Shown here one piece after another: positions 985-27,142 of a stretch of DNA of 32,000 nucleotides; the first letter of the stretch is position 1, and each line of letters begins with the position of its first letter. This DNA comes from Candidatus Heimdallarchaeota archaeon (lineage in GTDB: Archaea > Asgardarchaeota > Heimdallarchaeia > Heimdallarchaeales > Kariarchaeaceae). The notes beneath the pieces are model-generated. The model was not told the origin of the DNA. It made no database searches and saw only the letters and a list, made by a program, of their open reading frames with translations. The stretch is from the NCBI GenBank assembly GCA_030149205.1, contig JASBSB010000006.1, forward strand, positions 420,001 through 452,000. Reading direction: 5' to 3'. A program made the translations under genes and the position numbers.

Positions 985-1914
985 TCACTGTTTTAATTTG
1001 GGATCTAACGCATCTCTTAAGGCATCACCAAACAGGTTTGCTGCTAAAACGACAAAAAATATAGCAAAGCCAGGAGCGAGAGCTTGTTCGGGATTAACAT
1101 ACAAGGTTCCTTGAGATTGAGAAACCATAATTCCCCAACTTACAGTGTTGGCAGGGTCACCTAAACCAAGAAAAGCTAATCCAGCTTCAGAAAGTATAGC
1201 ACCTGCCACGAATAATGCACCTAATACAATGATTGGGGCTAGAATATTAGGAAATATGTGAACAAATAGGATTCTAAGGTCATTTGCACCCATAACTCTA
1301 GCAGCAGAAACGTATTCTAAGGATGAAACTTGTTTAACGTTTGCTGTCACTAATCTAGCCAAACCTGCCCACCCAAACAAACCAATAACATATGTGATGA
1401 CCATTACAACAGGTATATTTGCTAAAAATTGAGCTTTCCCTGACGTGATTAAATTAACTAATAGTAGTGCAATTAACAGGAATGGTACAGCAAGAAAGAG
1501 ATCCACAATTCTCATTAGAATTTCTTCTATGCTTCCTTGATAGTAACCAGCGACCATACCTACTAGTACCCCGATAACCAATGAAATAAGGGTTGCAACT
1601 ATACCAACAGTCATAGAGGTTTCTGAACCTACCAACAACCTGGAATACCCATCTCTTCCTTTTATGTCTGTTCCAGCTGGATATTTTAAGTTTGGAGAAG
1701 CATTGGCTCCACCACCATATTTACTGTTTCTTGCTGGTGCAATAGAAGTTGGATTAAAACTGATTAAAATTGGATAAAATACTGAGATTAAAATAGTTAA
1801 AATTAGAAAATATAGTGCTATCATTGCGACTTTATTTCTCTTAAGTCTTTTTCCAACGACTATCCACTGATTTTCCGATTTGAATTTTTTAATATTAGAA
1901 TTTACTTCTGTCAT
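985..1914 (-). CDS. oppC: Peptide ABC transporter permease, OppC/DppC
   Basis: Motifs GTDIKGRDGYSRLLVG, EYVSAARVMGA (EAA loop), HIFPN, ILSEAGLAFLGLG, NLFGDALRDALDP; RBS GAGGT upstream. Confidence 0.95.
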   Translation of the reverse strand: MTEVNSNIKKFKSENQWIVVGKRLKRNKVAMIALYFLILTILISVFYPILISFNPTSIAPARNSKYGGGANASPNLKYPAGTDIKGRDGYSRLLVGSETSMTVGIVATLISLVIGVLVGMVAGYYQGSIEEILMRIVDLFLAVPFLLIALLLVNLITSGKAQFLANIPVVMVITYVIGLFGWAGLARLVTANVKQVSSLEYVSAARVMGANDLRILFVHIFPNILAPIIVLGALFVAGAILSEAGLAFLGLGDPANTVSWGIMVSQSQGTLYVNPEQALAPGFAIFFVVLAANLFGDALRDALDPKLKQ

Positions 1915-1925
1915 AAACTAACCTC

Positions 1926-3596
1926 TTAAAGTGAAATCCTCGGGTCTAAATATGTATAGACAATATCTGTCAACATATTTGCAATTAATATCATAATTGT
2001 AATAATCAACACCATTGCCATCACCATATTGATATCAAAGGAAAAAACGGCTTTAACGTAAAGTTGTCCCAACCCAGGCCAGTTAAAAACTGTTTCTGTA
2101 ATTGGTGCACCCGCAAGAAGACCACCAATACTTAATCCCAAAAATGTTATTATGGGAAGCATCACATTTGGAAGGGCATGGTTCATGATAACTGAACGCT
2201 CAGATAAACCATTTGCTCTTGCTGAAAGTATATAATCCTCTCTCATAACCTCTAACATTGTCCCTCTTGTCAACCTTGCAAAGGTGGCCATGGTAGCAAA
2301 CGCTAGAGTTAGAACTGGTAGAACTAAATGCCAGATAGAATCATAGGTATACCAGAAAAATATTTGAAAATAGTCCATCCACCATGATAAATTGGAATAT
2401 TTTGACCCAATGTTTTGAGAAAAGAAAGACGATGGATCTGGTCCACAGACCCCACAATATCTCTCCTGTAATACAGGAACAAAATGTGCACCTCCATTTG
2501 GAAACCAGTTTAATCCAATTCCTCCAAAAATTAACAATGCAAGAATCCCCGTCACAAATATGGGCATGGAGAGACCTAACAGGGCTATCATAGAGACCAA
2601 TGAATCAATGAAAGTCTGATGATAATACGCAGCAAGAACTCCAAGTAAAACACTTATTGTAAAGGCTATAATTAAAGAAATAACCTGCATTTTTAATGTC
2701 TCCCAAATGAAGGGACCTATTATACTTTGCACTGGTTGCTTAGAGATGTATGAGAGCCCATAATCGAAATGTAGGAAACCATAAGTCCAGGTCATAAATC
2801 TATCCCATAATGTGTATGGCTTATAAGTGACTGGGTCAATGAATCCGAAAAGAAGCTTTAGCCTTGTCGCTTGTTGATCTCTTCCAATTCTGATATTCCC
2901 GAGTAATAATTGAATGGGGTCAGTTATGGTGTTAGAAATAAAAAATGTAAACCAAGCGATGGCAATAAACATTAACATAATTGCAAAGACTCTTCTTATC
3001 GAAAAAATTACTATCCTATTTTCAAAAAAAGATTTCATATCCCCATATTTTAGGTAATACCAATAAATCAGTGGGGTATACAAACCGATTGTAATTCCAA
3101 CGACCCAGTTATTATTAGTGAAGTTCATTACAAACCACAGAAAGCTTATAAGAAATATTAGAGTTCGTAAAGTAATGTGTGAGCTTGTTTTTTCTTTTAT
3201 GACTATTGGAATTGAAAGATAAGAAAGAACGATAAGAAGAATGATTGAAAATTGAGATATAAGAAATGAATTACTTGATTGATTGTAGATTACGGTGTAG
3301 CCAGAACTTCCAAAAATGTTTTGAATTTGAAAACTCATTCCAGTAGTAAAGCCTCTAAAAAACTGAAATGTGGGTAAAAGTGAAAATTCATAAAATACTG
3401 TAGATAAACTCTTCCCAGAAATTATTCCTCCAAATGAGTTACTCATCCATCCAACAAATTGGTTGAAATATAAGAGAGGTGCAAAGTATAGGAATAATAA
3501 GATAGCCTCTAAAATTGCAAACCTTTTAACTATTTCAGATAAAGTAAGTGGTTCTTCATGGTCAGAGGCATCCATAATCAGCGTTGTATCATCCAT
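1926..3596 (-). CDS. oppB: Peptide ABC transporter permease OppB/DppB with an extra N-terminal membrane domain of about 190 aa
   Basis: C-terminal ~360 aa carry DppB motifs (DYGLSY, HLVLPVLTL, RLTRGTMLEVMREDYILSARANGL, ITETVFNWPGLG, DIVYTYLDPRI); the N-terminal extension has several additional hydrophobic helices. Confidence 0.93.
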   Translation of the reverse strand: MDDTTLIMDASDHEEPLTLSEIVKRFAILEAILLFLYFAPLLYFNQFVGWMSNSFGGIISGKSLSTVFYEFSLLPTFQFFRGFTTGMSFQIQNIFGSSGYTVIYNQSSNSFLISQFSIILLIVLSYLSIPIVIKEKTSSHITLRTLIFLISFLWFVMNFTNNNWVVGITIGLYTPLIYWYYLKYGDMKSFFENRIVIFSIRRVFAIMLMFIAIAWFTFFISNTITDPIQLLLGNIRIGRDQQATRLKLLFGFIDPVTYKPYTLWDRFMTWTYGFLHFDYGLSYISKQPVQSIIGPFIWETLKMQVISLIIAFTISVLLGVLAAYYHQTFIDSLVSMIALLGLSMPIFVTGILALLIFGGIGLNWFPNGGAHFVPVLQERYCGVCGPDPSSFFSQNIGSKYSNLSWWMDYFQIFFWYTYDSIWHLVLPVLTLAFATMATFARLTRGTMLEVMREDYILSARANGLSERSVIMNHALPNVMLPIITFLGLSIGGLLAGAPITETVFNWPGLGQLYVKAVFSFDINMVMAMVLIITIMILIANMLTDIVYTYLDPRISL

Positions 3597-3667
3597 TTCT
3601 TATTTCACAATTAAACTGTGCTTATAATGGTTATTACTAATGCATATTTTTTAGGGGTTTGATAAAT

Positions 3668-5179
3668 TTAATGTTCTTCAATAAAATCTTTTAAGTTTAT
3701 TTCGTGAGGTAAGAGGGCTCGCTCTACTTTGGGTTTTTTAATTTTTCTGATTCCCCCGATTGCAAGTCCACCGATCAAGGTAAAACCAAGAATGGAGTAC
3801 ACTAGCCCTAAGCCTGCTCCACCTTGAATTTTAACTGCTGCTAATGCACTATACTTGTCTAAGGTATGAATTGTGTTATTGGTTTTCAAGCTATAAATTT
3901 CTATTCTATTGTTTACCTTGTTTTCTCTTACAACTGGGTAGGTATGTTCTATGTTGAGAGAATTCGTCACAGGAAACAAAACGTAAGATTTAATATCCCC
4001 CTGGAAGTTTGTGTATTTTGCCATTGAAATATCAAAGGTAAATCTCCCAGTTGCTGAATCAAAAACATCTTTTATTGACCAAGTTAAATAAATATCATTA
4101 CCTGAGGTATGAACACCTGTCATCGACCTTACTTCACGGTTATCTCTTGATGGATCAAACTTAACAGATGACCATTGATCCCGGGCCGTTAGTGAATTTG
4201 TTTCTGGCTTTACAGAAGTATCAGGAAGGTAAGTTGCCCAAGTGTTTCCAGAAAACCAAGAACCTCCAGCAATAAAAACTCCCTTATTTATTGGAAAGAT
4301 AACCGGTCGGGTAAATGTAGATCCAATTGACTGATAATCATAGGCATCTGGAAAAATTACCGTTTTATATGTTTCTGGAGTACTGTTTAAGAATTGAGTA
4401 GGATTATTTGGAATCATTAAAAATTGGATATTAATTTGTCTAGCCAAATTTATCTTATTCGTAAAAGCTATGTAACTTGTACCATTAACAATTGTCATAC
4501 CAGGATAATATACGTCTATCAGCTGCCTGCTTTTAGAGTAAAAACCTCCAATATGATTTCCTAATAAATCAAAATGCCTCCATTGTCCATTTAATAATGC
4601 TGCATAATGAATAGAAGTGTAACCTTGAACGTTAAATTGTGAGTTGAAATAGTCTTTTGAGTTTTGATTATATATTACAGAATAAACAATTCTGGGGGAT
4701 CCACTGGCAGTAAGTGCAATATAAGGAGACATTGCATACCAGTTTGAAGGTGTTGTAATTGGAACAGACATCCAATTATTTATTCCCAAACGTTTTGCAA
4801 AAAATAAGGTGTAATTTTGAGTAACATAACTTGTATATATTGAACCATTGGAGGCTATTACAAAATTATAGTGATAAGGATAAACAGGGGTATCTGTAAC
4901 ATTTTCTGTATGTAGACTACCATTAGTTTGAAGAACTGCAAATTTAAAGATATGCTTGCCAGTTAAGTTTTCTCCACGAGGCTCATTTACGTTTAATGGA
5001 CCAACAAGGTATGAAAAGAAAGTTTGACCATTGCTCCCATTTTTTAAATCCAATCGAGAACTGTTCGCTGGAACTTTAGTTAGAGCCTCACTCGAGAATT
5101 CCCTTAATTGTCCGTGGGTAGGAATTAAAGAAATAAAAAGCATAAATACTACAATGAATGCAGTTAACTTGAATTTCAT
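3668..5179 (-). CDS. Secreted, C-terminally membrane-anchored surface protein; possible beta-propeller
   Basis: N-terminal signal peptide (MKFKLTAFIVVFMLFISLIP), aromatic beta-strand-rich body, about ten N-x-S/T sequons, C-terminal TM helix followed by a basic tail. The fold call is inference. Confidence 0.75.
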   Translation of the reverse strand: MKFKLTAFIVVFMLFISLIPTHGQLREFSSEALTKVPANSSRLDLKNGSNGQTFFSYLVGPLNVNEPRGENLTGKHIFKFAVLQTNGSLHTENVTDTPVYPYHYNFVIASNGSIYTSYVTQNYTLFFAKRLGINNWMSVPITTPSNWYAMSPYIALTASGSPRIVYSVIYNQNSKDYFNSQFNVQGYTSIHYAALLNGQWRHFDLLGNHIGGFYSKSRQLIDVYYPGMTIVNGTSYIAFTNKINLARQINIQFLMIPNNPTQFLNSTPETYKTVIFPDAYDYQSIGSTFTRPVIFPINKGVFIAGGSWFSGNTWATYLPDTSVKPETNSLTARDQWSSVKFDPSRDNREVRSMTGVHTSGNDIYLTWSIKDVFDSATGRFTFDISMAKYTNFQGDIKSYVLFPVTNSLNIEHTYPVVRENKVNNRIEIYSLKTNNTIHTLDKYSALAAVKIQGGAGLGLVYSILGFTLIGGLAIGGIRKIKKPKVERALLPHEINLKDFIEEH

Positions 5180-5246
5180 AGACTTGCATTTTTTAAGAGA
5201 TTAAAATAATTACTGTTAGAATTTAATTAATACTTAAATTTATGAT

Positions 5247-7133
5247 TTACTTTCTAACTTTTCTTTTTAAAGTAATTGCAATAAATATCGACACAAATGT
5301 TACTATGAAAGGAACAAGTGATACCGGTGTTGGGGTTGAGGTAGTAGTGGTACCAGTCGGAGTACTTGAAGTTGTAGTTGTCGACTTAAAAGCCACATTA
5401 CCCCATTCTAAGGAAGAGGTTGATAACAATAATGCGTCTATTCCTGTTAAGGTATCAGACCAGGCCCACTGGGATTTAGGGTATACAATTGGGATCACTG
5501 GTAAGTCCTGATGAATCAATTGTTGAACTTTAACTGCCCATTCTGTTCTCTTTACTGGATCTAAAGTTGACGTGTAATTGCTGATTGCGTTCTCAAGTGT
5601 TCTGTTGTTATAGTTATAGAAGTTTCCACCAACAGGTCTCCAGTTAGATTTCTCATATAATCCAGTTGGATCCCAGTCCAGACCCCAACCATAACCTACG
5701 AAGAAAACATCAAATCCTCCCTTATCGTATGATTTTGGAGGTACATCTGAACCAAATGTTCTAGGTTGAATATCACCCCAACCAGTGCTTACATGTTTAG
5801 TAACACCAATTCCGATCTTTGGTAATTCTGCTGCAAAGTTATCACTCCATTGATTTCTGGCTGGGTTTGTGTTGGGTGATAAAACAGTCACATTGAAAAA
5901 GAATTTGGGATAGACGCCTGTTTTATTATTAGGTGTTCCAAGTTTTGAATAGTCATAACCTGCCTTTGTCATCATCTCTTTTGCCATTGTTATATTGAAT
6001 GGATCTGGTTTGATGTTTGCATCCCAGCCAAAAGCACTAGATGGCATGGTTGAAGCTGCTGGTTGTCCCAGACCCTGTAAGATCTGATTTGCAGCTAAGC
6101 TTCGATCAACTATTAATGACATAGCATGTCTAACGAGTCGTCCACGACTTGCATTCAGAGCAACAGAGTCACCAAATTTACTTGCTGGGCTGCCTGAGCC
6201 ATTTCCAAAGTATGGGTTGAAGTGATTAAGTGAGATTTCTTGGTGAGCCGGGTCTCCAACGATTGTTGCTGTTATTCCTCTAACTAATTTCAATTCTGAT
6301 GGGTAAGGAACATATTGAGAATCCATTAAATTGATGGTTCCAGATGCTAGAGCACCAAGAGCTGCTGCTTTGCTACTTACTTTTTGAAATACGATGGAGT
6401 CCAATTTAGTGTTTGCTGCATCCCAATAGTTTGTATCTTTTACAACAGTTACAACCATATTGGTAGTATCAATTTTTTGCACTTTGAATGGACCAGTGGA
6501 AGCTACATCTGAACCATCTGAAGCATCCCAGTTACAAACTGTAGCATTTTTTGTTGAAACACAGGAGTCATACCTACTTTGGAAATGACTTTTTTCAACA
6601 ATTGTTGAAGCTAATAATCCTAGTGCAAATGCATAAGGTCTGGTTAAATTGAAAAAGACAGTTGATGAATCTATTTTACTCACAGATGAGTTTGTCATAT
6701 ATTGTGAGGCAATTGGATAAACACCTACATCAATTAGAGGGGTTAAACGAGCCTTAAAGCTAAAAACAACATCATCTGCCGTAATGGGAGTACCATCAGC
6801 AAATTTGAGGTTCGGCTTTAACTTTACTGTGAACTGTGTGCTATTTGCAGATACAGTTGGCATCGAAGCTGCTAAATCAGGCACCCAGTCTCGACTATTT
6901 GCTGCGCTTCTTTTAAAGAGCCCAGAAGTAACTGCAGAAAGCCATTGGGCAGTTGCGTAACTTTGAACTGTGAACGATGAAAACTCAGTGAAATCATATG
7001 GCAGAGCATAGATTAAAGTTTTCGAATTTTGGTTTAAAGAAGGGTTTGCAAACCCGAGCTGGATGATTGAAACACTGCTAACTAGAAGAAGAGCAGTGGT
7101 GATCATGAAATACAATTTTGTTTTACTTTTCAT
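5247..7133 (-). CDS. oppA: Peptide ABC transporter substrate-binding protein (SBP family 5) with Ser/Thr linker and C-terminal TM anchor
   Basis: KFADGTPITADDVVFSF, STGPFKV, VRHAMSLIVDR, QQLIHQDLPVIPI; C-terminus TTTTSSTPTGTTTTSTPTP followed by a hydrophobic helix and KRKVRK, typical of archaeal anchored binding proteins. Confidence 0.93.
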   Translation of the reverse strand: MKSKTKLYFMITTALLLVSSVSIIQLGFANPSLNQNSKTLIYALPYDFTEFSSFTVQSYATAQWLSAVTSGLFKRSAANSRDWVPDLAASMPTVSANSTQFTVKLKPNLKFADGTPITADDVVFSFKARLTPLIDVGVYPIASQYMTNSSVSKIDSSTVFFNLTRPYAFALGLLASTIVEKSHFQSRYDSCVSTKNATVCNWDASDGSDVASTGPFKVQKIDTTNMVVTVVKDTNYWDAANTKLDSIVFQKVSSKAAALGALASGTINLMDSQYVPYPSELKLVRGITATIVGDPAHQEISLNHFNPYFGNGSGSPASKFGDSVALNASRGRLVRHAMSLIVDRSLAANQILQGLGQPAASTMPSSAFGWDANIKPDPFNITMAKEMMTKAGYDYSKLGTPNNKTGVYPKFFFNVTVLSPNTNPARNQWSDNFAAELPKIGIGVTKHVSTGWGDIQPRTFGSDVPPKSYDKGGFDVFFVGYGWGLDWDPTGLYEKSNWRPVGGNFYNYNNRTLENAISNYTSTLDPVKRTEWAVKVQQLIHQDLPVIPIVYPKSQWAWSDTLTGIDALLLSTSSLEWGNVAFKSTTTTSSTPTGTTTTSTPTPVSLVPFIVTFVSIFIAITLKRKVRK

Positions 7134-7457: not shown

Positions 7458-9080
7458 TTATCTCATGTATGCGTACGAAAAGTCCTTAGGTGGGCTAAAG
7501 GTCTCCTTAATTGCTTGGACACTCACCCATCTGATAAGATTTAAATAGGAACCAGCTTTATCGTTAGTTCCTGATGCTCTTGCTCCACCAAATGGTTGTT
7601 GGCCGACTACAGCAGCAGTGGGTTTGTCATTGATATAAAAGTTTCCTGCGGCGTTTTTAAGGGTATGAGTCATGTATTTGATGACACTTCTCTCTTTTGC
7701 AAAAATCGAGCCTGTGAGAGCGTAAATTGAGGTAGTGTTACAAAGATTGAGTGCTTCATCAAATTTATTATCATCATATACATATACTGTAAGAACAGGG
7801 CCAAAAATCTCTTCTTGCATTGTTTTGAATTTAGGGTTTGTTGTCTCAACTATCGTTGGGGGGATGAAATATCCTCTGGAAGAATCAGCTTTTCCTTCAG
7901 TGATGACTTCTGCTTCTGTGGACTCCTCAACATAGGATATGTATGATGTGATTTTTTCATAGGCACTTGCATCAATGACTGCATTCATCATTGTAGTAAC
8001 ATCTTCAACATCCCCTTGTTTAAATTCTTTAAGCTCATCAAGCATAATTTTCTTGATTTCTGACCAGCGGGATTTTGGTACATACATTCTTGATGCTGCA
8101 GAACATTTCTGACCACAATATTCAAATGATGCTCGTAAAGCAGCTATTGCAACCTCTCTGGAATTAGCTGAGTTATGTACAAAAATAAAGTCTTTCCCGC
8201 CAGTTTCTCCAACTATTCTGGGGTAACTCTTATAGGTAGCTATATTTTCTCCAATAACCTTCCACATTTGATGAAATGTTGAAGTAGAACCTGTAAAATG
8301 AATACCAGCCAGATCTGGATGAGGCAATATAATCCTTCCAACCTCAGAACCCTTTCCTGGTAAGAAATTTATAACACCATTAGGTAACCCTGATTCTTCA
8401 AACAGTTCCATCAAGAAGTGGGCTGAATAGACAGCTGTAGATGCAGGTTTCCAAACAACTGTATTACCCATAATTGCTGGAGATGTCGGTAGATTACCAG
8501 CAATACTAGTGAAGTTAAAGGGTGTCACAGCAAAGACAAATCCTTCTAGTGGTCTATAGTTTACAGAATTCCACATCCCACGAGGGGAATATGGCTGATC
8601 TCTGTAAATTTCTTGCATATAATATGTGTTAAATCTGTAAAAATCTATCAACTCACAAGCGGAATCAATTTCAGCTTGGTAAATATTTTTTGACTGTCCC
8701 AACATTGTAGATGCATTCAACACTGGTCGATATTTCCCGGCTAGCAAATCAGCCATTTTTAAGAAAATAGCAGCCCGATCCTGCCAATCAAAAGATTCCC
8801 AGACTTCTTTTGCCTCCATAGCAGCCTCAATTGACATCAAGATATGCTCTTTACTAGCCTTTGAATAATACCCAAGCACATGCTGATGATCGTGAGGTAT
8901 GACTATTTTTTCTTTTTCGTCAGAATATATTTTTTTTCCACCAATAACCAATGGGACTTCTATTTTCTGATTTTTGAGGGATTGAATCTCTGCCATCAGG
9001 GTTTTTAACTCAGGAGAATCTGGAAGATACCCCAGCACTGGCTCATTGGATGGTTTCGGTACACTTGGAATTAGATTCAT
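7458..9080 (-). CDS. pruA: L-glutamate gamma-semialdehyde (1-pyrroline-5-carboxylate) dehydrogenase, ALDH4/Put2-like
   Basis: PFNFTSIAGNL, GIHFTGST, GETGGKDF (catalytic Glu), EYCGQKCSA (catalytic Cys), EEIFGP, FYINDKPT, QPFGGARASGTNDKAGS. Confidence 0.95.
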   Translation of the reverse strand: MNLIPSVPKPSNEPVLGYLPDSPELKTLMAEIQSLKNQKIEVPLVIGGKKIYSDEKEKIVIPHDHQHVLGYYSKASKEHILMSIEAAMEAKEVWESFDWQDRAAIFLKMADLLAGKYRPVLNASTMLGQSKNIYQAEIDSACELIDFYRFNTYYMQEIYRDQPYSPRGMWNSVNYRPLEGFVFAVTPFNFTSIAGNLPTSPAIMGNTVVWKPASTAVYSAHFLMELFEESGLPNGVINFLPGKGSEVGRIILPHPDLAGIHFTGSTSTFHQMWKVIGENIATYKSYPRIVGETGGKDFIFVHNSANSREVAIAALRASFEYCGQKCSAASRMYVPKSRWSEIKKIMLDELKEFKQGDVEDVTTMMNAVIDASAYEKITSYISYVEESTEAEVITEGKADSSRGYFIPPTIVETTNPKFKTMQEEIFGPVLTVYVYDDNKFDEALNLCNTTSIYALTGSIFAKERSVIKYMTHTLKNAAGNFYINDKPTAAVVGQQPFGGARASGTNDKAGSYLNLIRWVSVQAIKETFSPPKDFSYAYMR

Positions 9081-9144
9081 TTGTTATCATTGGTTCTACA
9101 ATAGTCATTTTATGAAACCTTTTAAATTACCCCTGACAGTTTGC

Positions 9145-12100
9145 TTAATTTTCTTTATCCATTAGTTCCTCATTAAGTTTAATCTTTTTGAGTTCATTAT
9201 CAAAAATGATAACACCTTTTCCTATTTTTCCATCTATGTAGATAACAAGAGGATTCTCAGAATGAACCCACTTTATATATTCACCTTCCTTAATTGTTGC
9301 AAGTGTGTTTAACCTCTCCCAATCAATCTTTGACTCTTGATGATGAAAAGGAACAGAAAAGTAGCTCTTCTTACTCGATGTAATATTCAAAAAGAAATGT
9401 TGACCTGAGGATGCATCTACCTGAAAATTTTCCATACCATATTCAACTATGGATTGAGAATTGTCTATGTCATGCCATTGAACTGGGATGCCCAGGTAGG
9501 GATCCTGGGTTCCCCATCTCCCTGGTCCAAGCAAAATATATGGTTTTTCTGATCCCAAAAGCTTGTTAAATTTACTTACCTCATCTTTAATGTCAAAGGT
9601 GTGATTGGTACTAAAGGTCTCAGGTTTTACAAAAACCACATCAAAGATTTTTGAACGTTTCCCGTTTCCAAGTACTGTATCTGAGTATATTATTGAATTA
9701 TCCACAAGTTTGGAAATATTTATGTCTACCTCTTCAAAATCAGTTATTAAAGGACGCATTTGTAACAAGTAGAAATTTAAATGAGTTTCATCAGGCCTTT
9801 GATCTAGTGTCACTGCATATTCAAATTCCACTTCACAACCAAAGCTCATCCTTCCAACTTGAATAATTGAGTTGAGTAGTTCAAGGAAAGGGACTTTGTT
9901 ATATTTCAACAGGTATGCAAATGTTACAACTAATGGACCTTTCTCTTCTACTCGATCTATGATACGGTCGTTATGACCATCGTATGTAGAGGCTAACCAA
10001 CTCAATCTCTTAGATGCTCTCAGCTTATCGATTGGGAGTTCTAGTAAATTTGAAAGTTGACCACGTTTAAAGTTTGAATCGGTCGAAGAGGTGTCTAAAG
10101 CAAAGAAATGTGTTTGAGAATTATCAAACATATCTTTCGTGTTCGAATACTGTGGTAGAATTCTTGGATATTTAGGACTAAATCTCAATGATTTATGTCC
10201 ACTGGTAATCTGCTCTCCTAGACCCACTGCTATCTGACTTGTACCCTCTTCAGGCCTCATATATGAGACTGGATAGAAATTGTAGCTTTGACCAACACCT
10301 GCAAAATCTGGAAAAAATATATGATCTGTAAATTTTCCGACAATTTTTTGAATAATCACTGCCATTTTTTCAAGTTCTGGTTGTTGACCTGAGGATAGAA
10401 GATAACTTCGGGCAGTTTGGGTAAAAGTTGACATGTAGACCAATTTTACTGCTTTCTGTAAAGTTTCTGCTCTTGTCTTTGCTTTAGGATGGTTATTTGG
10501 TAACATAAATGTTGCATAAATCCCTGCGAATGGTTGAAATTGTGAATCCTCAAGTAAGCTAGAAGACCTTACTGCAAGAGGTGATTTGACTTTCCGGGAA
10601 AACACATTCAAAACTCGTAGTAAAGATTTAGGGAGTTTGGCATCTAAAAATTTGTTACGAAGCTCATCATCAGATAAATCCTTTAGAATAAGGTCCTCAA
10701 AGTGATTAATTTCAATGAACTCATCAAAGAACGAGGTGGTTAGTACTAAGGTTTTAGGCAGTTTCACAGAAATGTTTGAGAACCTGCTTGCCAGTTTGGT
10801 TTTGAAAATTAAATTGTTTAGGAATGCTAATCCTCTGCCCTTCCCACCAAGTGAACCACTTCCAGCTTTCATAAACGGCTTTAGTTCATAAAATGAATCA
10901 GGGTTAAATTCAGTGATGACTCCTTCTGTTTGTACCTCTTGTGTCATTTTAAAGAAATGGATCAAAAATTCTCTGATTTGTTCACCGTCATCAAACTGTT
11001 TAACTGAGATGTCACGTAGTTGATAGGCAAGATGAAATTCTCCACGTGTGAACAGCCAATTTGAAAAATCATTCCTCGATGCATGAAAAACTATTGACTC
11101 AACTGGTATCTTCTTTATTACACGAATAAACTCTCTTAGATCATGTGCTCTGGCGATTTCACGACCACTGGCTTCTGCACGAAACACAAAATCACCGAAT
11201 CCGATGTAAAAGAGAAATCTTACAAGTGAGTGGAAAAACTTTTGTGACCTCTTATGAACAAACGAAATACCTAACTGTCTTGAACGATCCTGATTCTTTA
11301 ATTCAGAAGATTGGAGTAATATTGGCATGTTTGGCAGTTGATCTCGTATAAATTCGGTTAAGTCGAAACCCGCTTCTAAATCTTTCTTACCATCTTTTGG
11401 AAAACCAACATCAGAAATCAGAGCAAGGAGGTTGTTTTTATAAATCGAAATTAGCTCTGTTGCTTCTTCATAAGTTCTTGCTAAAAGAATCTTAGGCCTC
11501 CCCCTATAAAGCAGCAGTTTGTGGACGTGATTGACTCCTTCAGCCATGATTTTACGAGTTTGCCTTAGGATTTCTCTATATAAAAGTGGGAGAAATCTTG
11601 AATAATAGCTGATAGAGTCTTCAATGACAAGAATTATTCTTACCAACCCATAATCTGCATCAAATGGGGCATTTATCCGATCTTCAATTAGTTTGATCAT
11701 GGTAAAGAAGATCCCTGAATCACCAGTATATGTGAAAACTGCATCTACAGAACCTTGCTCTTCAATCGCAGGTAAATTTACCAATTCAGATGGGTTAGTA
11801 ACTAACATAACAATTGAAATGACTGGAAATTCCTCTTTAATCATGTTTGCTATTTCAAATCCGTCGAGTCCTGAAATTCTCCTGGTAGTTATAACAAGAT
11901 CAAACTTGTGCCTTCTCAATAGGTCTAAGGCCTCATCTAAATTCGAGACACGTGTGACTCGAGGGGGAGGTGAAGTTAATTTTAATTCACTGTACTCTGT
12001 GAAAAATTCTGTACCTTTTCCATCTTCTTCAATAATAAAATCATCATAAAGTGTTGAGATGAGAAGAACTTCCTTAACCTTAAATTTCATGAGATCATAA

Positions 12101-12180
12101 AACATGTCATACTTAGTCTCGTAATCATGTTGGACATCCTTAAAATTGAAGACCTCATCTCTGTAGGTTTGTTCTTTCAT
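9145..12180 (-). CDS. PEP/pyruvate-binding (PPDK_N ATP-grasp) domain protein with two N-terminal receiver-like domains
   Basis: VLLISTLYDDFIIEEDG...FDLVITT (receiver-like 1); ILVIED...LISDVGFP...PILLQSS (receiver-like 2); GSLGGKGRGLAF, AVRSSSLLEDS...FAGIY, FYLLQMRP (PPDK_N); C-terminal GPGRWG. I could not find the phospho-His swivel motif or the PEP-binding TIM barrel of PpsA/PpdK. Confidence 0.88.
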   Translation of the reverse strand: MKEQTYRDEVFNFKDVQHDYETKYDMFYDLMKFKVKEVLLISTLYDDFIIEEDGKGTEFFTEYSELKLTSPPPRVTRVSNLDEALDLLRRHKFDLVITTRRISGLDGFEIANMIKEEFPVISIVMLVTNPSELVNLPAIEEQGSVDAVFTYTGDSGIFFTMIKLIEDRINAPFDADYGLVRIILVIEDSISYYSRFLPLLYREILRQTRKIMAEGVNHVHKLLLYRGRPKILLARTYEEATELISIYKNNLLALISDVGFPKDGKKDLEAGFDLTEFIRDQLPNMPILLQSSELKNQDRSRQLGISFVHKRSQKFFHSLVRFLFYIGFGDFVFRAEASGREIARAHDLREFIRVIKKIPVESIVFHASRNDFSNWLFTRGEFHLAYQLRDISVKQFDDGEQIREFLIHFFKMTQEVQTEGVITEFNPDSFYELKPFMKAGSGSLGGKGRGLAFLNNLIFKTKLASRFSNISVKLPKTLVLTTSFFDEFIEINHFEDLILKDLSDDELRNKFLDAKLPKSLLRVLNVFSRKVKSPLAVRSSSLLEDSQFQPFAGIYATFMLPNNHPKAKTRAETLQKAVKLVYMSTFTQTARSYLLSSGQQPELEKMAVIIQKIVGKFTDHIFFPDFAGVGQSYNFYPVSYMRPEEGTSQIAVGLGEQITSGHKSLRFSPKYPRILPQYSNTKDMFDNSQTHFFALDTSSTDSNFKRGQLSNLLELPIDKLRASKRLSWLASTYDGHNDRIIDRVEEKGPLVVTFAYLLKYNKVPFLELLNSIIQVGRMSFGCEVEFEYAVTLDQRPDETHLNFYLLQMRPLITDFEEVDINISKLVDNSIIYSDTVLGNGKRSKIFDVVFVKPETFSTNHTFDIKDEVSKFNKLLGSEKPYILLGPGRWGTQDPYLGIPVQWHDIDNSQSIVEYGMENFQVDASSGQHFFLNITSSKKSYFSVPFHHQESKIDWERLNTLATIKEGEYIKWVHSENPLVIYIDGKIGKGVIIFDNELKKIKLNEELMDKEN

Positions 12181-17501: not shown

Positions 17502-18521
17502 TTATTTTATAATCAAGGTAATATGCTTCTCTATGAGGTATTTTTTGGCTCGATCTGTTATTTGAGAATTTGAAATAGACAGTGATTTTAAACCTGAGAG
17601 AACTTCAAAGTCTTCTTGATCTAATTTTCTATCAAAGGGGTTATTTGACAATAACAGTACATGTAGATTACTTAATGATGAAAGCCTCTCCACTAACTGC
17701 TTTGTTTGAGAAATCTGATTTGACTCAAGAGAAAGTAATTCTAAGTTCGATAATAAACTGAAATCACTAGGGAGCTGCTGAAGGTAATTGTTGTTTAAAT
17801 GTACCATCAATAAATTTCTTAATTGACAAATACTTTGAGGTAATTCAAAAAGTCGATTATAAGAGATTGCTAAAGCCTTGAGTTTAATTAACTCTTTAAT
17901 TTTGGTCGGTAATATTGTAATATTGTTTCTGCTTAAAATTAATGTTTCCAGCGAGTGAAATTTGAACAGTTCAGGAGGAATTTCTTTTAACTTAAAATTC
18001 ATTAAATTCAAAAACTTTTGGTCACCATGAGCAAAATTCTCACCTAGAGGATATTTTCTGTTTCCTTTCTTTATTTTTACTGTGATTTCATCAGAATTGT
18101 GATGTTGAGTAGAAATGGGATCAATTACTATTAACTTTTTACCATTCAATGTTTTTGGGAGATGGAAATATTGAATCTGATCTACGATGATTTGCTTTAG
18201 CTTAGTAAGGTTGCTAAGGTCAGGGACAAACACAAATTTATTGTGATTAATTTTTAGTATCTCTAATTTTTTAAGTAGAAGAACATTTTCAGGGAAAGTT
18301 TCAAGATTGTTATGTGATAGGTCGATCTCAACCAAGTTTTTATAATACTGGATTTCGGGTGGGAGGGATTTAAGTTTGTTTCCCGATACCAAGAGAACCT
18401 TTAATTTTTCCAATAAGGTTGTTGAAAGAGAGAATTCAGTCAAGTTCTGATTTTCTAAATTTAGTTCTTCATTTGAAATTAAAATGATGTTTTCTTCTTC
18501 TATAAGTTTTATTGTCAACAA
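17502..18521 (-). CDS. Leucine-rich repeat protein (two LRR blocks separated by a linker)
   Basis: Repeated LxxLxLxxNxLxxLP units (e.g. LVEIDLSHNNLETFP, LETLILSRNNITILP, LKALAISYNRLFELP); TTG start. Confidence 0.9.
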   Translation of the reverse strand: MLTIKLIEEENIILISNEELNLENQNLTEFSLSTTLLEKLKVLLVSGNKLKSLPPEIQYYKNLVEIDLSHNNLETFPENVLLLKKLEILKINHNKFVFVPDLSNLTKLKQIIVDQIQYFHLPKTLNGKKLIVIDPISTQHHNSDEITVKIKKGNRKYPLGENFAHGDQKFLNLMNFKLKEIPPELFKFHSLETLILSRNNITILPTKIKELIKLKALAISYNRLFELPQSICQLRNLLMVHLNNNYLQQLPSDFSLLSNLELLSLESNQISQTKQLVERLSSLSNLHVLLLSNNPFDRKLDQEDFEVLSGLKSLSISNSQITDRAKKYLIEKHITLIIK

Positions 18522-20701: not shown

Positions 20702-21853
20702 ATGATAATGATCAATCAAATTAAACTACCTCATCCAATGAAGAGGTTTACCTCTCTTTCTGAAATTGAGGACAGTGAATTGATTGACAAATTCCCTGCA
20801 TTATTGAGAGAGCTTGAAAGTCTAAAGTTGCTTGTTGCAGAATTAAGGCTCTCAGGACAATCTAATAAACCAAGGAACAAAATCAACAAAAACTTAAGTG
20901 ATAAGATCTTTTATAACTTTGGAATTTCTCAAGGTCATATAATTGAACTTAATATCAATTTTGATTTTGATTATATCCCCGACCACCTTTGGAATCTTGA
21001 ACATCTTGAGAAATTAACCTTACAAGGAGTCTGTGGGAATTCTTGTGGAAATTTTGCACGGTTAAAAAATCTCAAAAGTCTTGGCGTATTCTTTACCAAC
21101 AAGGATAGGAACCACCGTAGAATTGTATTTCCCGAAAACTTACAGAATTTATTGATGGTAAATGTAGACGTCAGAGAAAATCCACCAGAATTTAAGAACC
21201 TGAATAGTTTATCCAAGATCATTTTCAGAAAAGTTATTGGAGTTGAGAATATATTAAACCTAGGTGAGCTAACAAACTTATCTCATTTAGACATAGGGGA
21301 AAACAACGTTGAAAACATACCTGAGTCAGTTTTCAATAGTTTTAAAAATTTAAAGGTTCTAAAAGCCGATACAAACAGCATTAAACATATCTCTGAAAAT
21401 ATAAAAAATCTAGAGAAATTGAGAGTTTTAGATTTGGATAACAATTTGTTCACTCATTTTCCAAGAGAAATTACCAAATTAAGTAACCTAAGAGAATTAT
21501 ACATTTCCAACAATGCCATTCAACATATTCCAAGAAGCATTGAAAGATTAAAACGACTGGAAATTTTAAATTTAGCAGACAACAAAATTAGAAGTTTACC
21601 TGATGAGTTTGTTGAATTGATAGGTCTAAAAAGGGTGTTTCTGCAAAATAATAAATTGGTTGAGCTTCCAGAGTTAGTTGGAAAGCTCACAAACCTTGAA
21701 CGTGCTTATTTCAACTCAAACACTATTACCCAAATTCCCAAATCACTGTTCAAAATTCCAAACCTAAAAATATTAAACATCTCATCTAACAGACTGGTTT
21801 ATTCAAGAGAAGAAGTTAAATCTTTCCCCAAGCATATTTATATCACTTTTTAA
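20702..21853 (+). CDS. Leucine-rich repeat protein
   Basis: C-terminal half is a regular 23-aa LRR array (LRVLDLDNNLFTHFPREITKLSNLRELYISNNAIQHIPRSIERLKRLEILNLADNKIRSLP...); N-terminal cap and degenerate repeats. Confidence 0.93.
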   Translation: MIMINQIKLPHPMKRFTSLSEIEDSELIDKFPALLRELESLKLLVAELRLSGQSNKPRNKINKNLSDKIFYNFGISQGHIIELNINFDFDYIPDHLWNLEHLEKLTLQGVCGNSCGNFARLKNLKSLGVFFTNKDRNHRRIVFPENLQNLLMVNVDVRENPPEFKNLNSLSKIIFRKVIGVENILNLGELTNLSHLDIGENNVENIPESVFNSFKNLKVLKADTNSIKHISENIKNLEKLRVLDLDNNLFTHFPREITKLSNLRELYISNNAIQHIPRSIERLKRLEILNLADNKIRSLPDEFVELIGLKRVFLQNNKLVELPELVGKLTNLERAYFNSNTITQIPKSLFKIPNLKILNISSNRLVYSREEVKSFPKHIYITF

Positions 21854-21924: not shown

Positions 21925-22920
21925 ATGGCTCAGACAAAACCTAAATTGGAACAAAAAACCAAAAATTTGAGCATTGAAAGAAACGAGGGAACTGTTCTCG
22001 ACCTGAACTGGATAAATTCCATTCGTGTAAATAAAAGTGCGGTTGAACGAAGGGCAAGCAGTCTTACTAAAAGGAGATCTGTCAAGAAAGATTGGCAGAT
22101 CGCATGGCTCTTGAAGGCAGTAACTTGTATAGATTTAACCACACTCTCAGGAGACGATACCGAGGGGAAGATCAAACGACTTTGTACTAAGGCCAAGGTA
22201 CCTATAAGAAAAGAAATTTTAGAAAAATTATCCATCAATTCTAAAAGTTTTCACACTGGAGCTGTTTGTGTGTATCCCGAGTTTATTTCAGAAGCATCAG
22301 AAGAGGTAAAGGGTGCTGGTATCCCAGTTGCAGCAGTTTCAACAGGTTTTCCAGCCGGACATATTCCTTTTGATCTGAAGTTAAAAGATATAGAATACTG
22401 TGTTGCAAATGGTGCTGACGAAATAGACATTGTGATAAACAGAAAGCTAGTTCTTCAGGGAAAATGGAAGGAGCTCTACGAAGAAGTTTCAGCATTTAGA
22501 ATTGCCTGTGGAGATGCTCACATGAAAACTATATTAGCAACTGGAGAGTTGGGGACGTTAAGAAATGTTGCTAAAGCCTCTGTTGTCTGTATGATGGCTG
22601 GAGCAGATTTTATCAAAACATCAACAGGAAAAGAAACAGAAAACGCAACATTACCTGTGAGCCTTGTGATGGTTAGAATGATTCGTGAATTTTACAAAAA
22701 AACGGGGTATAAGGTTGGTTTCAAACCTGCGGGAGGTATAAAAACTGCAAAACAAAGTATTCAATGGCTTATTCTCATAAAAGAGGAGCTGGGGGATGAA
22801 TGGTTAACTCCAAAATTGTTTAGGTTTGGAGCAAGTAGCCTTTTGGCTGACATTGAAAGACAGTTAGAATATCATGTTGAGGGATTCTATTCTGCTGCAA
22901 ACAGGAATCCGGTGAGTTAA
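21925..22920 (+). CDS. deoC: Deoxyribose-phosphate aldolase, long (DERA-like) form
   Basis: IDLTTLSGDDT, AVCVYP, EIDIVINR, HMKTILATGEL (Schiff-base Lys), DFIKTSTGKE, GFKPAGGI, FRFGASSLL; N-terminal extension LDLNWINSIRVN typical of the long form. Confidence 0.96.
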   Translation: MAQTKPKLEQKTKNLSIERNEGTVLDLNWINSIRVNKSAVERRASSLTKRRSVKKDWQIAWLLKAVTCIDLTTLSGDDTEGKIKRLCTKAKVPIRKEILEKLSINSKSFHTGAVCVYPEFISEASEEVKGAGIPVAAVSTGFPAGHIPFDLKLKDIEYCVANGADEIDIVINRKLVLQGKWKELYEEVSAFRIACGDAHMKTILATGELGTLRNVAKASVVCMMAGADFIKTSTGKETENATLPVSLVMVRMIREFYKKTGYKVGFKPAGGIKTAKQSIQWLILIKEELGDEWLTPKLFRFGASSLLADIERQLEYHVEGFYSAANRNPVS

Positions 22921-25978: not shown

Positions 25979-27142
25979 TCACAGACCAACCCAATCAATA
26001 CCTCTATGTCTTAATTCTTTGATGAATAAGTCTGAGGGAACAATTGACTCACCAGGAAGAACACCTTTAGAATTGATTTTCCCATCAGCAATAAATATCG
26101 CAATTATACTTATAGAATAACCTGTAGTTCTCTCCATTGCTGAAATTTTATTAGTGCTGTCATATAAATCGATCAGATCATATGTTTCTTCCTGTGAATT
26201 TCCGTTCTTGTTACCCGAGATTTTAATTCGGGCTATAACTGCATCCTCTTTATTTTTTGGTAAGTGCTCTTCTAAGAGTCTTTCTGTAGCTTGCCTTGGG
26301 TTTATTCCTAAGTTTTTATGAGTCAAATCATCCAGAAATCCAAATTCCTTTAAAAATCTAAAAAATTGAAAATGTCCGGGGTATCTCAGCGTCTTATATT
26401 CTAATGTCTCTATCTTCCCCTCATAGAGAGTAGGTAAAGATGAAGTTCCTCCTGCAGTGTGATATGCCTCAAGTTCACCCCAGGGTGAATCAAATTTGAG
26501 AACCTCTCCTTCTGTTAATGAAGGTATCTCTTGAATCTTTCCACCTCTAAGGACAACAGATTTTTCAAGATATTCGTTTGTTAATCCTCTTATCGAAAAA
26601 ACCTGCTGATACTTTAAAATAGATTCTGGTCTTTGTGGAAGTCCACCTACATATAGACTGCAAGTTTGAACACTTTCAAATGATGAGATTAAATGATTAG
26701 CGATAATATTTACCATCCCTGGTGCAAGACCACAATCAGGAATAATTGTGATGTTTGCCTTTTTTGCCTCTTCATCAAGTAAATGTTGTTTTTTTACGAT
26801 GTTTGGATTCCCACCTAAATCAACAAATGAAAAGTTATTTTCTATACAAAATTCCGAAAGAATCAGATTAAACTTGTAATCTATTGCTCCAATAACCACA
26901 GATACGTTATGTTTATTGAGCAACTTCCCAAGGTCATCAAAAACGTCTGAGGGGAATTCCGTACTTAGCGTAAATTGGAACAACTGTAATCTATCTTCAT
27001 ACCTTTTTAGTTTTGATTCTGTTAGTTTTATTTGTTCAGGATGGTATTCAATTCCAATCACATTTTTATTGGAATTGGTCAGAAGATCATAGCAAATTGC
27101 TCTGCCCATAAGTCCTAAGCCTAAGACTGAAAAATTACCCAT
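25979..27142 (-). CDS. Saccharopine dehydrogenase family protein (lysine 6-dehydrogenase-like)
   Basis: N-terminal VLGLGLMG Rossmann motif, FVDLGG, IIPDCGLAPG, VGGLPQ, GLTNEY, LEAYHTAGGTS, YKTLRYPGH, AMERTTGYS. Confidence 0.9.
   Translation of the reverse strand: MGNFSVLGLGLMGRAICYDLLTNSNKNVIGIEYHPEQIKLTESKLKRYEDRLQLFQFTLSTEFPSDVFDDLGKLLNKHNVSVVIGAIDYKFNLILSEFCIENNFSFVDLGGNPNIVKKQHLLDEEAKKANITIIPDCGLAPGMVNIIANHLISSFESVQTCSLYVGGLPQRPESILKYQQVFSIRGLTNEYLEKSVVLRGGKIQEIPSLTEGEVLKFDSPWGELEAYHTAGGTSSLPTLYEGKIETLEYKTLRYPGHFQFFRFLKEFGFLDDLTHKNLGINPRQATERLLEEHLPKNKEDAVIARIKISGNKNGNSQEETYDLIDLYDSTNKISAMERTTGYSISIIAIFIADGKINSKGVLPGESIVPSDLFIKELRHRGIDWVGL

Follow-up and report, generated by a model that had tools for sequence, protein, structure and literature searches.

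We found that P0001, a 1011-aa protein encoded just upstream of pruA in the 32,000-nucleotide stretch of DNA that was analyzed (the window), joins two receiver domains and a DUF5752-like segment to a PPDK_N ATP-grasp and a C-terminal domain with an invariant histidine. We tentatively favor, with confidence a little short of even, the view that P0001 is a receiver-regulated, dikinase-type phosphotransferase that probably targets a dehydrogenase of the glutamate node or a ligand associated with one. The family is a neighbor of glutamate dehydrogenase (GDH) genes, and this, together with the pairing with PruA here, points to a switch at the glutamate node that has not been described before.

Organization of the locus

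The P0001 gene is upstream of pruA, amid genes for peptide uptake and amino-acid catabolism (Table 1). A reading of this DNA from its letters (the sequence-only reading) had placed the end of a 1011-aa frame 64 bp upstream of pruA on the same strand, and we confirmed this. Downstream of pruA is a gene for an SBP_bac_5 protein, and the order is the same in genus-mates. The TATA-like element in the spacer (TAATTTAAAA) is, by its sequence, a putative promoter. We compared the regions upstream of pruA in genus-mates for a common promoter, and these were too divergent for alignment. The genome has a single GDH gene, on contig C7, that is flanked by a gene for a PRTase-domain protein and not by a member of the P0001 family. 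The P0001 gene is on contig C2 and is thus not adjacent to GDH. As the sequence-only reading had stated, the window has no histidine kinase: a profile search found no HATPase_c there, and all of the matches in the genome (5/5) were on other contigs.

Table 1. Features of the P0001-pruA locus, in coordinates of the window
Feature	Coordinates	Strand	Basis
Whole gene, 1011-aa REC(Asp-less)-REC-DUF5752-like-PPDK_N-CTD protein (P0001)	9145..12180	(-)	ORF, translation, Pfam, AF2 model
REC1, aspartate-less pseudo-receiver, residues 33-178	11647..12084	(-)	Pfam Response_reg 74-131, beta-alpha pattern in model
REC2, canonical receiver, residues 181-325	11206..11640	(-)	Conserved columns; acceptor D257 at 11410-11412
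DUF5752-like helical segment, residues 326-440	10861..11205	(-)	Pfam PF19027, invariants, model helices 348-418
PPDK_N ATP-grasp nucleotide-binding domain, residues 443-814	9739..10854	(-)	Pfam, Foldseek, conservation
C-terminal domain (CTD), residues 815-1011, no Pfam family	9148..9738	(-)	Model, structural matches, conservation
64-nt spacer between the P0001 gene and pruA, with TATA-like TAATTTAAAA inside and T runs of <=3	9081..9144	(-)	Sequence read directly
pruA, L-glutamate gamma-semialdehyde (P5C) dehydrogenase, 540 aa	7458..9080	(-)	TIGR01236, 767 bits vs cut-off 613.6

Receivers and DUF5752-like segment

The AF2 model of P0001 had a pLDDT of 90.6 and a pTM of 0.87, and Foldseek matched the REC-REC part to PleD. 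Pfam recognized Response_reg at residues 74-131 (E 5e-10), within REC1. The acceptor position of REC1 is T99 (nucleotides 11884-11886), and across 122 family members this column was M in 92, T in 17, N in 7, and Asp in none. Maule et al. (2015, PMC4395418) noted an enrichment of Asp-less receivers on PPDK effectors. In contrast to REC1, which lacks the acceptor, REC2 has the full set of response-regulator features (acidic pocket, acceptor Asp, Ser/Thr, and Lys). Its pocket residues E187, D188, D257, S291, and K310 were invariant or nearly so in the family alignment, and 119 of the 122 members kept D257.

The DUF5752 profile (PF19027) matched residues 344-410 with an E value of 9e-7 and 28.8 bits (cut-off 23), a match that spans only positions 133-207 of the 208 in the profile. 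H366 and W375 in this segment are invariant. These results bear out the sequence-only reading, which had described a pseudo-receiver with Thr, a second receiver with an acidic pocket and Asp, a DUF5752-type helical segment and, after these, a PPDK_N ATP-grasp.

The ATP-grasp and the question of PEP synthase

Pfam assigned residues 443-814 of P0001 to PPDK_N (PF01326) with an E value of 1e-30. The ATP-grasp residues K447, R449, R538, E544, D545, E787, and Q807 were conserved among the 122 members. The nearest structures found by Foldseek were RPH (5hv3, E 9e-13), HpeI (9goj, E 8e-11), PEP synthase (2ols), and PPDK (1kbl). It had been suggested that the ATP-grasp would phosphorylate or ligate a target. 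The nearest structures are dikinase-type phosphotransferases, and ligation found no support.

It is extremely improbable that P0001 is an ordinary PEP synthase or pyruvate phosphate dikinase, even though it has PPDK_N and some of its homologs carry the database name 'phosphoenolpyruvate synthase'. Domain content already refutes this identity: Pfam found neither PEP-utilizers (PF00391) nor the TIM barrel PEP_utilizers_C (PF02896) anywhere in P0001. In addition, the NCBIfam PEP synthase profiles TIGR01418 and NF004881 scored only 34 bits (cut-off 739.75) and 42 bits (cut-off 883), respectively, and elsewhere the genome encodes four proteins in which the PEP-utilizers domain is canonical. The sequence-only reading was thus right to set PEP synthase aside. 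The rifampin phosphotransferase profile NF041857 gave 26 bits (cut-off 999).

The C-terminal domain has an invariant histidine

P0001 ends 197 residues past the ATP-grasp, and in the model these residues form a small alpha/beta domain (pLDDT 90.8) with a swivelling beta/beta/alpha fold like that of phospho-His carriers. The domain is marked by a GPGRWG loop, E913, and His928 (nucleotides 9397-9399). His928 was invariant (120/120) within the motif G-x-H-F-F-x-N, and in the model it follows a Gly loop, at the N-terminal end of a helix. Six of the 10 best independent structural matches were phospho-His carrier domains of PEP-utilizing enzymes (RPH, PPDK, and Enzyme I among them; Z 5.4-6.8). Matches (VIA) included the PEPut-type domain of PK (Z 6.8), RPH residues 756-867 (Z 6.5), and PPDK residues 375-514 and 2fm4 (Z 6.1), and Foldseek gave an E value of 6e-3 to PPDK. 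The top structural match was a DRTGG domain (Z 7.5), and Z scores of 5-7 can mean only a common arrangement.

Sequence comparisons did not connect this domain to PEP-utilizers. HMMER searches of PDB and Pfam found no such homology, and PF00391 matched none of 53 C-terminal domains at E<=10. The hhalign comparison with canonical swivel domains gave a probability of 0.9%, and only a 15-column terminal hairpin (IDG..G.I) was aligned. The best PDB sequence matches of the domain were longin domains (E 0.04), which we took as chance. The sequence-only reading had noted no phospho-His motif and no PEP-binding barrel. The canonical TSH motif, G-G-x-T-S-H in PEP synthase and PPDK, and the TIM barrel are indeed missing, but there is an invariant His in a divergent swivel-like domain after the ATP-grasp.

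A profile of the C-terminal domain found 2316 representatives, and in all of them the domain was C-terminal to PPDK_N. P0001 has all of the invariant residues of this family, which is defined by a PPDK_N domain and, after it, a C-terminal domain bearing GPGRWG and G-x-H-F-F-x-N. The only matches in a protein atlas were DUF5752 clusters and fragments of this family. PPDK_N and the C-terminal domain also occur alone, in proteins of ~580 aa, or with varied N-terminal modules, and one paralog, in which N replaces the acceptor Asp, keeps the equivalent of His928. Based on these two results we infer that the receivers are inputs to a core made of the other two domains. The ~580-aa minimal form has neither DUF5752 nor a third, substrate-binding domain, which favors an acceptor that is presented by another protein.

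It seems quite unlikely that P0001 is a self-contained His-to-Asp relay, in which the ATP-grasp would charge His928 and REC2 would receive the phosphoryl group at D257, within one protein or one dimer. Such a protein would be an energy-sensing response regulator that needs no histidine kinase and works by binding to GDH or PruA. One chain does combine a canonical receiver with a swivel-like domain that bears a His, the window is without a histidine kinase, and HATPase_c was found in only 3/59 homolog neighbors. However, a core without any receiver exists, as does the paralog with H928 and no acceptor Asp, and the two rule out the relay as the function of the core. Histidine kinases encoded elsewhere in the genome could also serve REC2.

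P0001 might instead be a small-molecule dikinase, a reading that we consider unlikely. By analogy with enzymes whose acceptors are rifampin, phenol, 4-hydroxyacetophenone, or pyruvate, phosphorylated His928 would modify a metabolite of the glutamate or 2-oxoglutarate node. The acceptors that characterized PPDK_N enzymes with a swivel His are known to phosphorylate are all small molecules or glucans. RPH and HpeI are the nearest folds, and a ligand might be bound by the DUF5752-like segment, in which H366 and W375 are invariant. However, the ~580-aa form is without DUF5752 or any other substrate-binding domain and, GDH aside, no pathway gene co-occurs consistently with the family.

Gene neighborhoods

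GDH is the recurrent neighbor of this family, as the sequence-only reading had stated. A GDH gene was within 10 kb of the family gene at 41 of 80 loci from many phyla, and was directly adjacent at 31 of the 80 diverse loci (31/77 when counted on the 77 that could be scored for adjacency). Among related Asgard genomes, GDH was beside the family gene in 32/55. The pairs come in all orientations, including tail-to-tail, in which co-transcription is impossible. The loci without GDH had no second recurrent partner; Response_reg and HATPase_c were the most frequent, at 3/59 neighbors each. Other partners were etfBA (in genomes G001 and G003) and a Glu_synthase-domain protein. BT1971, beside gdhA in Bacteroides, was considered as a family member and rejected: BT1971 is a catalase.

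PruA was beside the family gene at none of the 80 diverse loci. We searched 60 relatives, and among the 26 with a PruA match adjacency was found only in G007, where the genes are head-to-head. That is, the pairing occurs in two genera in total, in two orientations. There is a substantial chance, though clearly below even, that the pairing at P0001 is the by-product of a rearrangement and has no functional meaning, and that P0001 acts on something unrelated to PruA. The absence of PruA from 80/80 loci and the single case among relatives are consistent with this. So are the genus-mates, which keep the pruA-SBP_bac_5 synteny without a family gene upstream, the neighbors of the family gene, which vary within the window's own archaeal family, and the TATA-like element in the spacer. 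However, PruA recurs as a partner in two genera and two orientations and, like GDH, is a dehydrogenase of the glutamate node that uses NAD(P). The sequence-only reading had argued from PruA to a role in glutamate metabolism; the tie of the family to the glutamate node stood, but PruA is not a conserved alternative partner.

Spread and divergence of the family

P0001 was only 46% identical to its counterparts in genus-mates, compared to 78-80% for PruA and GDH. This makes it an outlier of unusual divergence. Its branch is long, and its function may therefore have changed. REC-PPDK proteins were found in 55 of 61 related genomes, two single-contig assemblies among them, and they formed two well-supported clades. 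Thus, REC-PPDK proteins are genuinely archaeal. This settles a question from the census of archaeal two-component systems, which listed the REC-PPDK combination and left its true archaeal origin open (Galperin et al. 2018, PMC5847659).

A model for P0001

In the dikinase-type model that we favor, the PPDK_N ATP-grasp and the swivel-like C-terminal domain would be the catalytic core. The ATP-grasp would bind ATP, His928 would be phosphorylated, and the C-terminal domain would carry the phosphoryl group to an acceptor. An unlinked histidine kinase would phosphorylate D257 of REC2 and thereby gate the core, with Asp-less REC1 perhaps acting as a scaffold in gating. Because GDH is the gene partner that is conserved across phyla, the acceptor would likely be a dehydrogenase of the glutamate node or some ligand linked to it. 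In the lineage of P0001, the linkage to GDH was lost, and the gene is upstream of pruA.

The invariant ATP-grasp residues in 122 members, and RPH, HpeI, PEP synthase, and PPDK as nearest structures, argue for this model. So do the location of the C-terminal domain, which follows the ATP-grasp at the C-terminus as does the His domain of RPH, and the invariance of His928. Against the model, the C-terminal domain has no sequence-level homology to PEP-utilizers and has DRTGG as its top match. In addition, adjacency to GDH or PruA does not make either one a substrate, GDH is on another contig here, and the spacer before pruA has its own TATA-like element.

GDH is a link between carbon and nitrogen metabolism. 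The P0001 family has thousands of members, routinely mislabelled as PEP synthase. In one class of Asgard archaea it is nearly universal, and across many phyla it is beside GDH, which makes it a strong candidate for a missing regulator. A bolder and rather doubtful proposal is that the family is the first prokaryotic system of covalent control on glutamate-node dehydrogenases. In response to a two-component signal, a non-canonical phospho-histidine dikinase would phosphorylate GDH directly, and would have been retargeted to PruA in this Heimdall-group lineage. If true, central nitrogen and carbon metabolism would have a layer of regulation that >15 bacterial phyla and Asgard archaea have in common. 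Having left GDH, joined PruA, and become unusually divergent, P0001 offers a natural way to test how the target is chosen.

Comparison with known systems

The architecture of P0001 is that of the REC-PPDK response regulators in PMC5847659 and PMC4395418. These papers give the domain combination alone, and not the C-terminal domain, the linkage to GDH, or a function. We found no functional study in the literature of DUF5752, or of PPDK_N with a response regulator. Phospho-regulation of GDH is reported for eukaryotic enzymes only (PMC12301742), and our literature search found no prokaryotic case. According to the account in PMC12301742, GDH of Thermus thermophilus has a regulator homologous to APRT (Tomita et al. 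2019). As cited there, this regulator is a precedent for an adenine-nucleotide-sensing regulator of GDH, but its fold is unrelated to that of P0001 and its mechanism differs (AMP binding, no phosphotransfer).

P0001 resembles PpsA and PPDK in its ATP-grasp family and catalytic residues, and its C-terminal domain aligns with the central phosphoryl-carrier domain of PPDK (1vbg 375-514 and 2fm4, Z 6.1). In contrast to those enzymes, it is without the PEP/pyruvate TIM barrel and the PF00391 signature, and its NCBIfam scores are far under the cut-offs. In the split dikinases phenylphosphate synthase and HpeHI, which serve as a precedent, the acceptor-binding part is on a separate polypeptide. The ATP-binding module of P0001 resembles HpeI (PDB 9GOJ), but the gene partner of the P0001 family is GDH and not a substrate-binding dikinase subunit, and receivers are fused to the core.

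Like P0001, RPH (PDB 5HV1/5HV3) and the PRK06241-type 'PEP synthase' paralogs have a C-terminal, His-bearing, swivelling beta/beta/alpha domain and no TIM barrel. In P0001, however, the rifampin-binding domain of RPH is missing and no other domain is between the ATP-grasp and the C-terminal domain. The His motif also differs, G-x-H-F-F-x-N in P0001 compared to the G-G-x-x-[ST]-H of PEP-utilizers, and the N-terminal REC-REC-DUF5752 modules are found in P0001 and not in RPH.

Domain content and genomic context

The features that the sequence-only reading had described held in every detail that could be checked: both ORFs, the domain set of P0001, and a pruA gene identified by TIGR01236, downstream on the same strand and 64 nt away by ORF reading (see table). 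P0001 had no Pfam match to PEP-utilizers or PEP_utilizers_C, in agreement with the claim that it has no PEP-binding barrel, and there was no HATPase_c match in the window, as expected if no histidine kinase is encoded there. P0001 scored 34-42 bits against NCBIfam PEP-synthase models, which have cut-offs of 740-880. A TATA-like TAATTTAAAA is present in the 64-nt spacer and an oligo-T tract is absent; independent transcription and read-through are therefore both possible.

Coordinates of features (window positions unless a protein, locus or contig is named)
Feature	Position	Strand	Remarks
P0001 gene	9145..12180	-	Intact ORF, 1011 aa
pruA (L-glutamate gamma-semialdehyde dehydrogenase)	7458..9080	-	540-aa ORF; TIGR01236 767 bits vs cut-off 613.6
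Response_reg	P0001 residues 74-131		Pfam E 5e-10
DUF5752	P0001 residues 344-410		Pfam E 9e-7, gathering score exceeded
PPDK_N	P0001 residues 443-814		Pfam E 1e-30
C-terminal domain	P0001 residues 815-1011		No Pfam family matched
ORF upstream of P0001 gene	12287-12787	-	166 aa; weak TFIIE_alpha (E 1e-3), Sec10_N (E 4e-6, at cut-off)
Peptide ABC-transporter set, downstream of pruA	985-7133	-	SBP_bac_5, BPD_transp_1 x2 (one with OppC_N), 503-aa ORF without Pfam match
Leucine-rich-repeat protein	17502-18521	-	LRR_8 and LRR_14 in the two proteins, E down to 4e-32
Leucine-rich-repeat protein	20702-21853	+
DeoC/LacD-type aldolase	21925-22920		Precedes next; junction 1 nt
792-aa protein	22921-25299	+	Two Aldedh stretches (E 3.5e-194)
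Saccharopine dehydrogenase homolog	25979-27142	-	Sacchrp_dh_C, E 6e-40
PruA, G007	C437:3-1502	-	Head-to-head with next
Family gene, G007	C437:1674-4649	+
ETF genes, G001	L113:6477-8395		ETF-alpha (PF01012/PF00766), putative ETF-beta (267-268 aa)
ETF genes, G003	L114:6538-8455		As in G001
Glu_synthase-domain protein, G059	L121:6688-8316 (contig C7)		542 aa, PF01645
Phosphoribosyltransferase-domain protein, source genome	L132:11036-11644 (contig C7)	-	202 aa, PF00156; directly upstream of GDH
GDH, source genome	L132:9529-10905	-

The transporter set places the locus in a context of peptide and amino-acid catabolism. The 166-aa ORF may encode a small winged-helix or coiled-coil protein. Elsewhere in the window, the 792-aa protein is unusually long for an aldehyde dehydrogenase, and two leucine-rich-repeat proteins are encoded in this archaeal genome. 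Reactions of the saccharopine dehydrogenase family can release glutamate.

Receivers and ATP-grasp

We aligned 112 database homologs and, separately, 122 members from genomic loci. The first receiver (REC1) is aspartate-less across the whole family. Its acceptor position is occupied by M in 92, T in 17 and N in 7 of the 122 members and by Asp in none; P0001 has T99. The catalytic set of the second receiver (REC2) is complete (E187, D188, S291, K310 and D257, the last in 119/122). Thus the pseudo-receiver with Thr for Asp and the second receiver with an acidic pocket and Asp, both first recognized by eye, are borne out. K447, R449, R538, E544, D545, E787 and Q807 of the ATP-grasp are essentially invariant, and this domain is very probably active in P0001.

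PPDK effectors are enriched in aspartate-less receivers (PMC4395418). A response-regulator census includes the REC-PPDK combination and names three Heimdallarchaeota, for which it raises the possibility of contamination (PMC5847659). Our literature search found no functional study of the REC-PPDK family.

A conserved C-terminal domain

The claim that P0001 has no phospho-His motif was correct in that PEP-utilizers is not matched, but it overlooked a conserved domain with an invariant histidine. Residues 815-1011 contain a GPGRWG loop, E913, G926, H928 followed by F-F, and N932; His928 was present in 120/120 sequences covering that position. Confident AlphaFold models were obtained for full-length P0001 (pLDDT 90.6, pTM 0.87) and for this domain separately (pLDDT 90.8). 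His928 is modeled after the Gly loop, at the N-terminus of a helix.

Foldseek gave weak matches to the domain, the best being PPDK (E 6e-3, probability 0.95). A second comparison, with an aligner independent of Foldseek, matched a DRTGG domain (Z 7.5), the PEP-utilizer-type C-terminal domain of Bacillus pyruvate kinase (residues 475-586; Z 6.8), rifampin phosphotransferase (RPH) residues 756-867 (Z 6.5), EI-Ntr (Z 6.2), the isolated PPDK phosphoryl-carrier domain and maize PPDK residues 375-514 (Z 6.1 each), and Enzyme I (Z 5.4-5.5), all at Z < 8, which can arise from common arrangement alone. Phospho-His carrier domains were 6 of the 10 best structural matches and belong to the same enzyme superfamily as the adjoining ATP-grasp. 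In RPH, the His domain occupies the position that the C-terminal domain has in P0001. HMMER searches against PDB and Pfam found no sequence relatives, and hhalign against canonical swivel domains of related genomes gave a probability of 0.9%. Because no sequence-level relationship was found and such Z scores can reflect a shared arrangement, we consider it moderately supported that this is a divergent phospho-His swivel domain.

A profile of the domain found 2316 cluster representatives at E <= 1e-3, always with the domain at the extreme C-terminus. Architectures ranged from a bare core of PPDK_N and the C-terminal domain (about 580 aa), through this core preceded by about 160 aa of unassigned sequence, a single-receiver form (815 aa) and the REC-REC-DUF5752 form (about 1000 aa), to longer forms (1150-1560 aa) and double units (1639 aa). 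Three proteins of 1520-1650 aa (P0122, P0123 and P0124) have two PPDK_N plus C-terminal domain units per chain; the two PPDK_N stretches of P0122 were confirmed. Family paralogs directly adjoin in tandem in 8 of 80 loci (the best 80 of at least 600).

In one tandem paralog the acceptor residue of REC2 is N, and His928 is retained. Judging from this paralog and the core-only form, the ATP-grasp and C-terminal domain make up a self-sufficient unit, for which the receivers serve as exchangeable inputs. A relay from His to Asp within the protein is therefore unlikely to be obligatory; D257 of REC2 as the acceptor seems improbable. A third domain for substrate binding is absent from the minimal form, a mild point in favor of an acceptor supplied by another protein; that the acceptor is a small molecule is unlikely.

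As the most likely mechanism we propose, tentatively and at somewhat under even confidence for the whole chain, that phosphorylated REC2 would gate the core, that the ATP-grasp would use ATP to phosphorylate His928, and that the swivel-like domain would pass this phosphoryl group on to a glutamate-node acceptor. That His928 is the carrier is, taken separately, more likely than not.

GDH is the recurrent partner

We called ORFs and clustered neighbors in 80 loci from different species, the best 80 of at least 600, from Bacteroidota, Desulfobacterota, Acidobacteriota, Gemmatimonadota, Cloacimonadota, Ignavibacteriota, Fibrobacterota, Planctomycetota, Thermoplasmatota, Asgard and others. Among these 80, a glutamate dehydrogenase (GDH) of ~450 aa (PF00208 + PF02812) was the sole widely recurrent partner, in line with the neighborhood given in the earlier reading. 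It was present in 41 and the immediate neighbor in 31, in all orientations: co-directional (12-15 nt gaps), divergent and convergent. Chance adjacency is estimated at about 0.1%, given one or two GDH genes per about 3000. The loci of this set without GDH had no second recurrent partner among immediate neighbors. None of the 80 had PruA or any aldehyde dehydrogenase (E < 1e-20).

The closest named homologs of P0001 are from Heimdallarchaeota and Kariarchaeaceae MAGs. We found the family in 55 of 61 related genomes of the class (non-independent samples), including two single-contig assemblies. The tree has two archaeal clades, f1+f3+f4 (support 0.999) and f2+f5+f6 (support 1.0), where f1 is the window's own family. 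GDH is directly adjacent in 26/29 f2 genomes (nearly all tail-to-tail, 30-60 nt gaps), in 6/7 f5 genomes (head-to-head), in 0/6 f6 genomes, and in none of f1, f3 or f4. Many matches in genus g11 (G017, G019, G020, G024, G035, G037 and others) contain one in-frame TAA, probably from alignment overrunning the true stop, since the tail-to-tail GDH is just 30-60 nt away. Genome G059 has two family copies, one head-to-head with GDH and one adjoining a Glu_synthase-domain protein.

The source genome (3.3 Mb, 12 contigs, 93.5% complete) has its only GDH on a different contig from the P0001 gene. Among the related genomes, PruA adjacency occurs only there (co-directional) and in G007, of a different genus (head-to-head). 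In the genus-mates G001 and G003 the family gene directly follows etfBA (etfB putative), 37-43 nt away; an ORF of >2100 aa lies upstream on the same strand. The pruA-SBP_bac_5 synteny is kept within the source genus without the family gene beside it, indicating that the family gene moved to its present position by pruA. That the pairing with pruA in the window is incidental is a distinct possibility. A dehydrogenase as the acceptor, GDH in general and possibly PruA in the window, is conceivable but less likely than not. Phospho-regulation of GDH is described for eukaryotic enzymes only (PMC12301742).

P0001 shares 46% identity with the G001 and G003 copies; identity is 72% between these two and 58-59% between either of them and the G007 copy. 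Across the same genomes, PruA and GDH are 78-80% identical. In the tree, P0001 is placed inside the f1 subclade (support 0.996) and has the longest of the terminal branches (0.76); it keeps all family-invariant residues. We interpret its divergence as a sign of accelerated change or of hidden paralogy rather than of decay.

The PF00156 protein next to GDH in the source genome is also paired with GDH in G001 (divergent) and G003 (co-directional), and in 0/52 other GDH-containing loci. In the source genus, this protein may take the place of the family protein as partner of GDH. The pairing recalls Thermus thermophilus, in which an AMP-binding APRT homolog activates GDH (as cited in PMC12301742).
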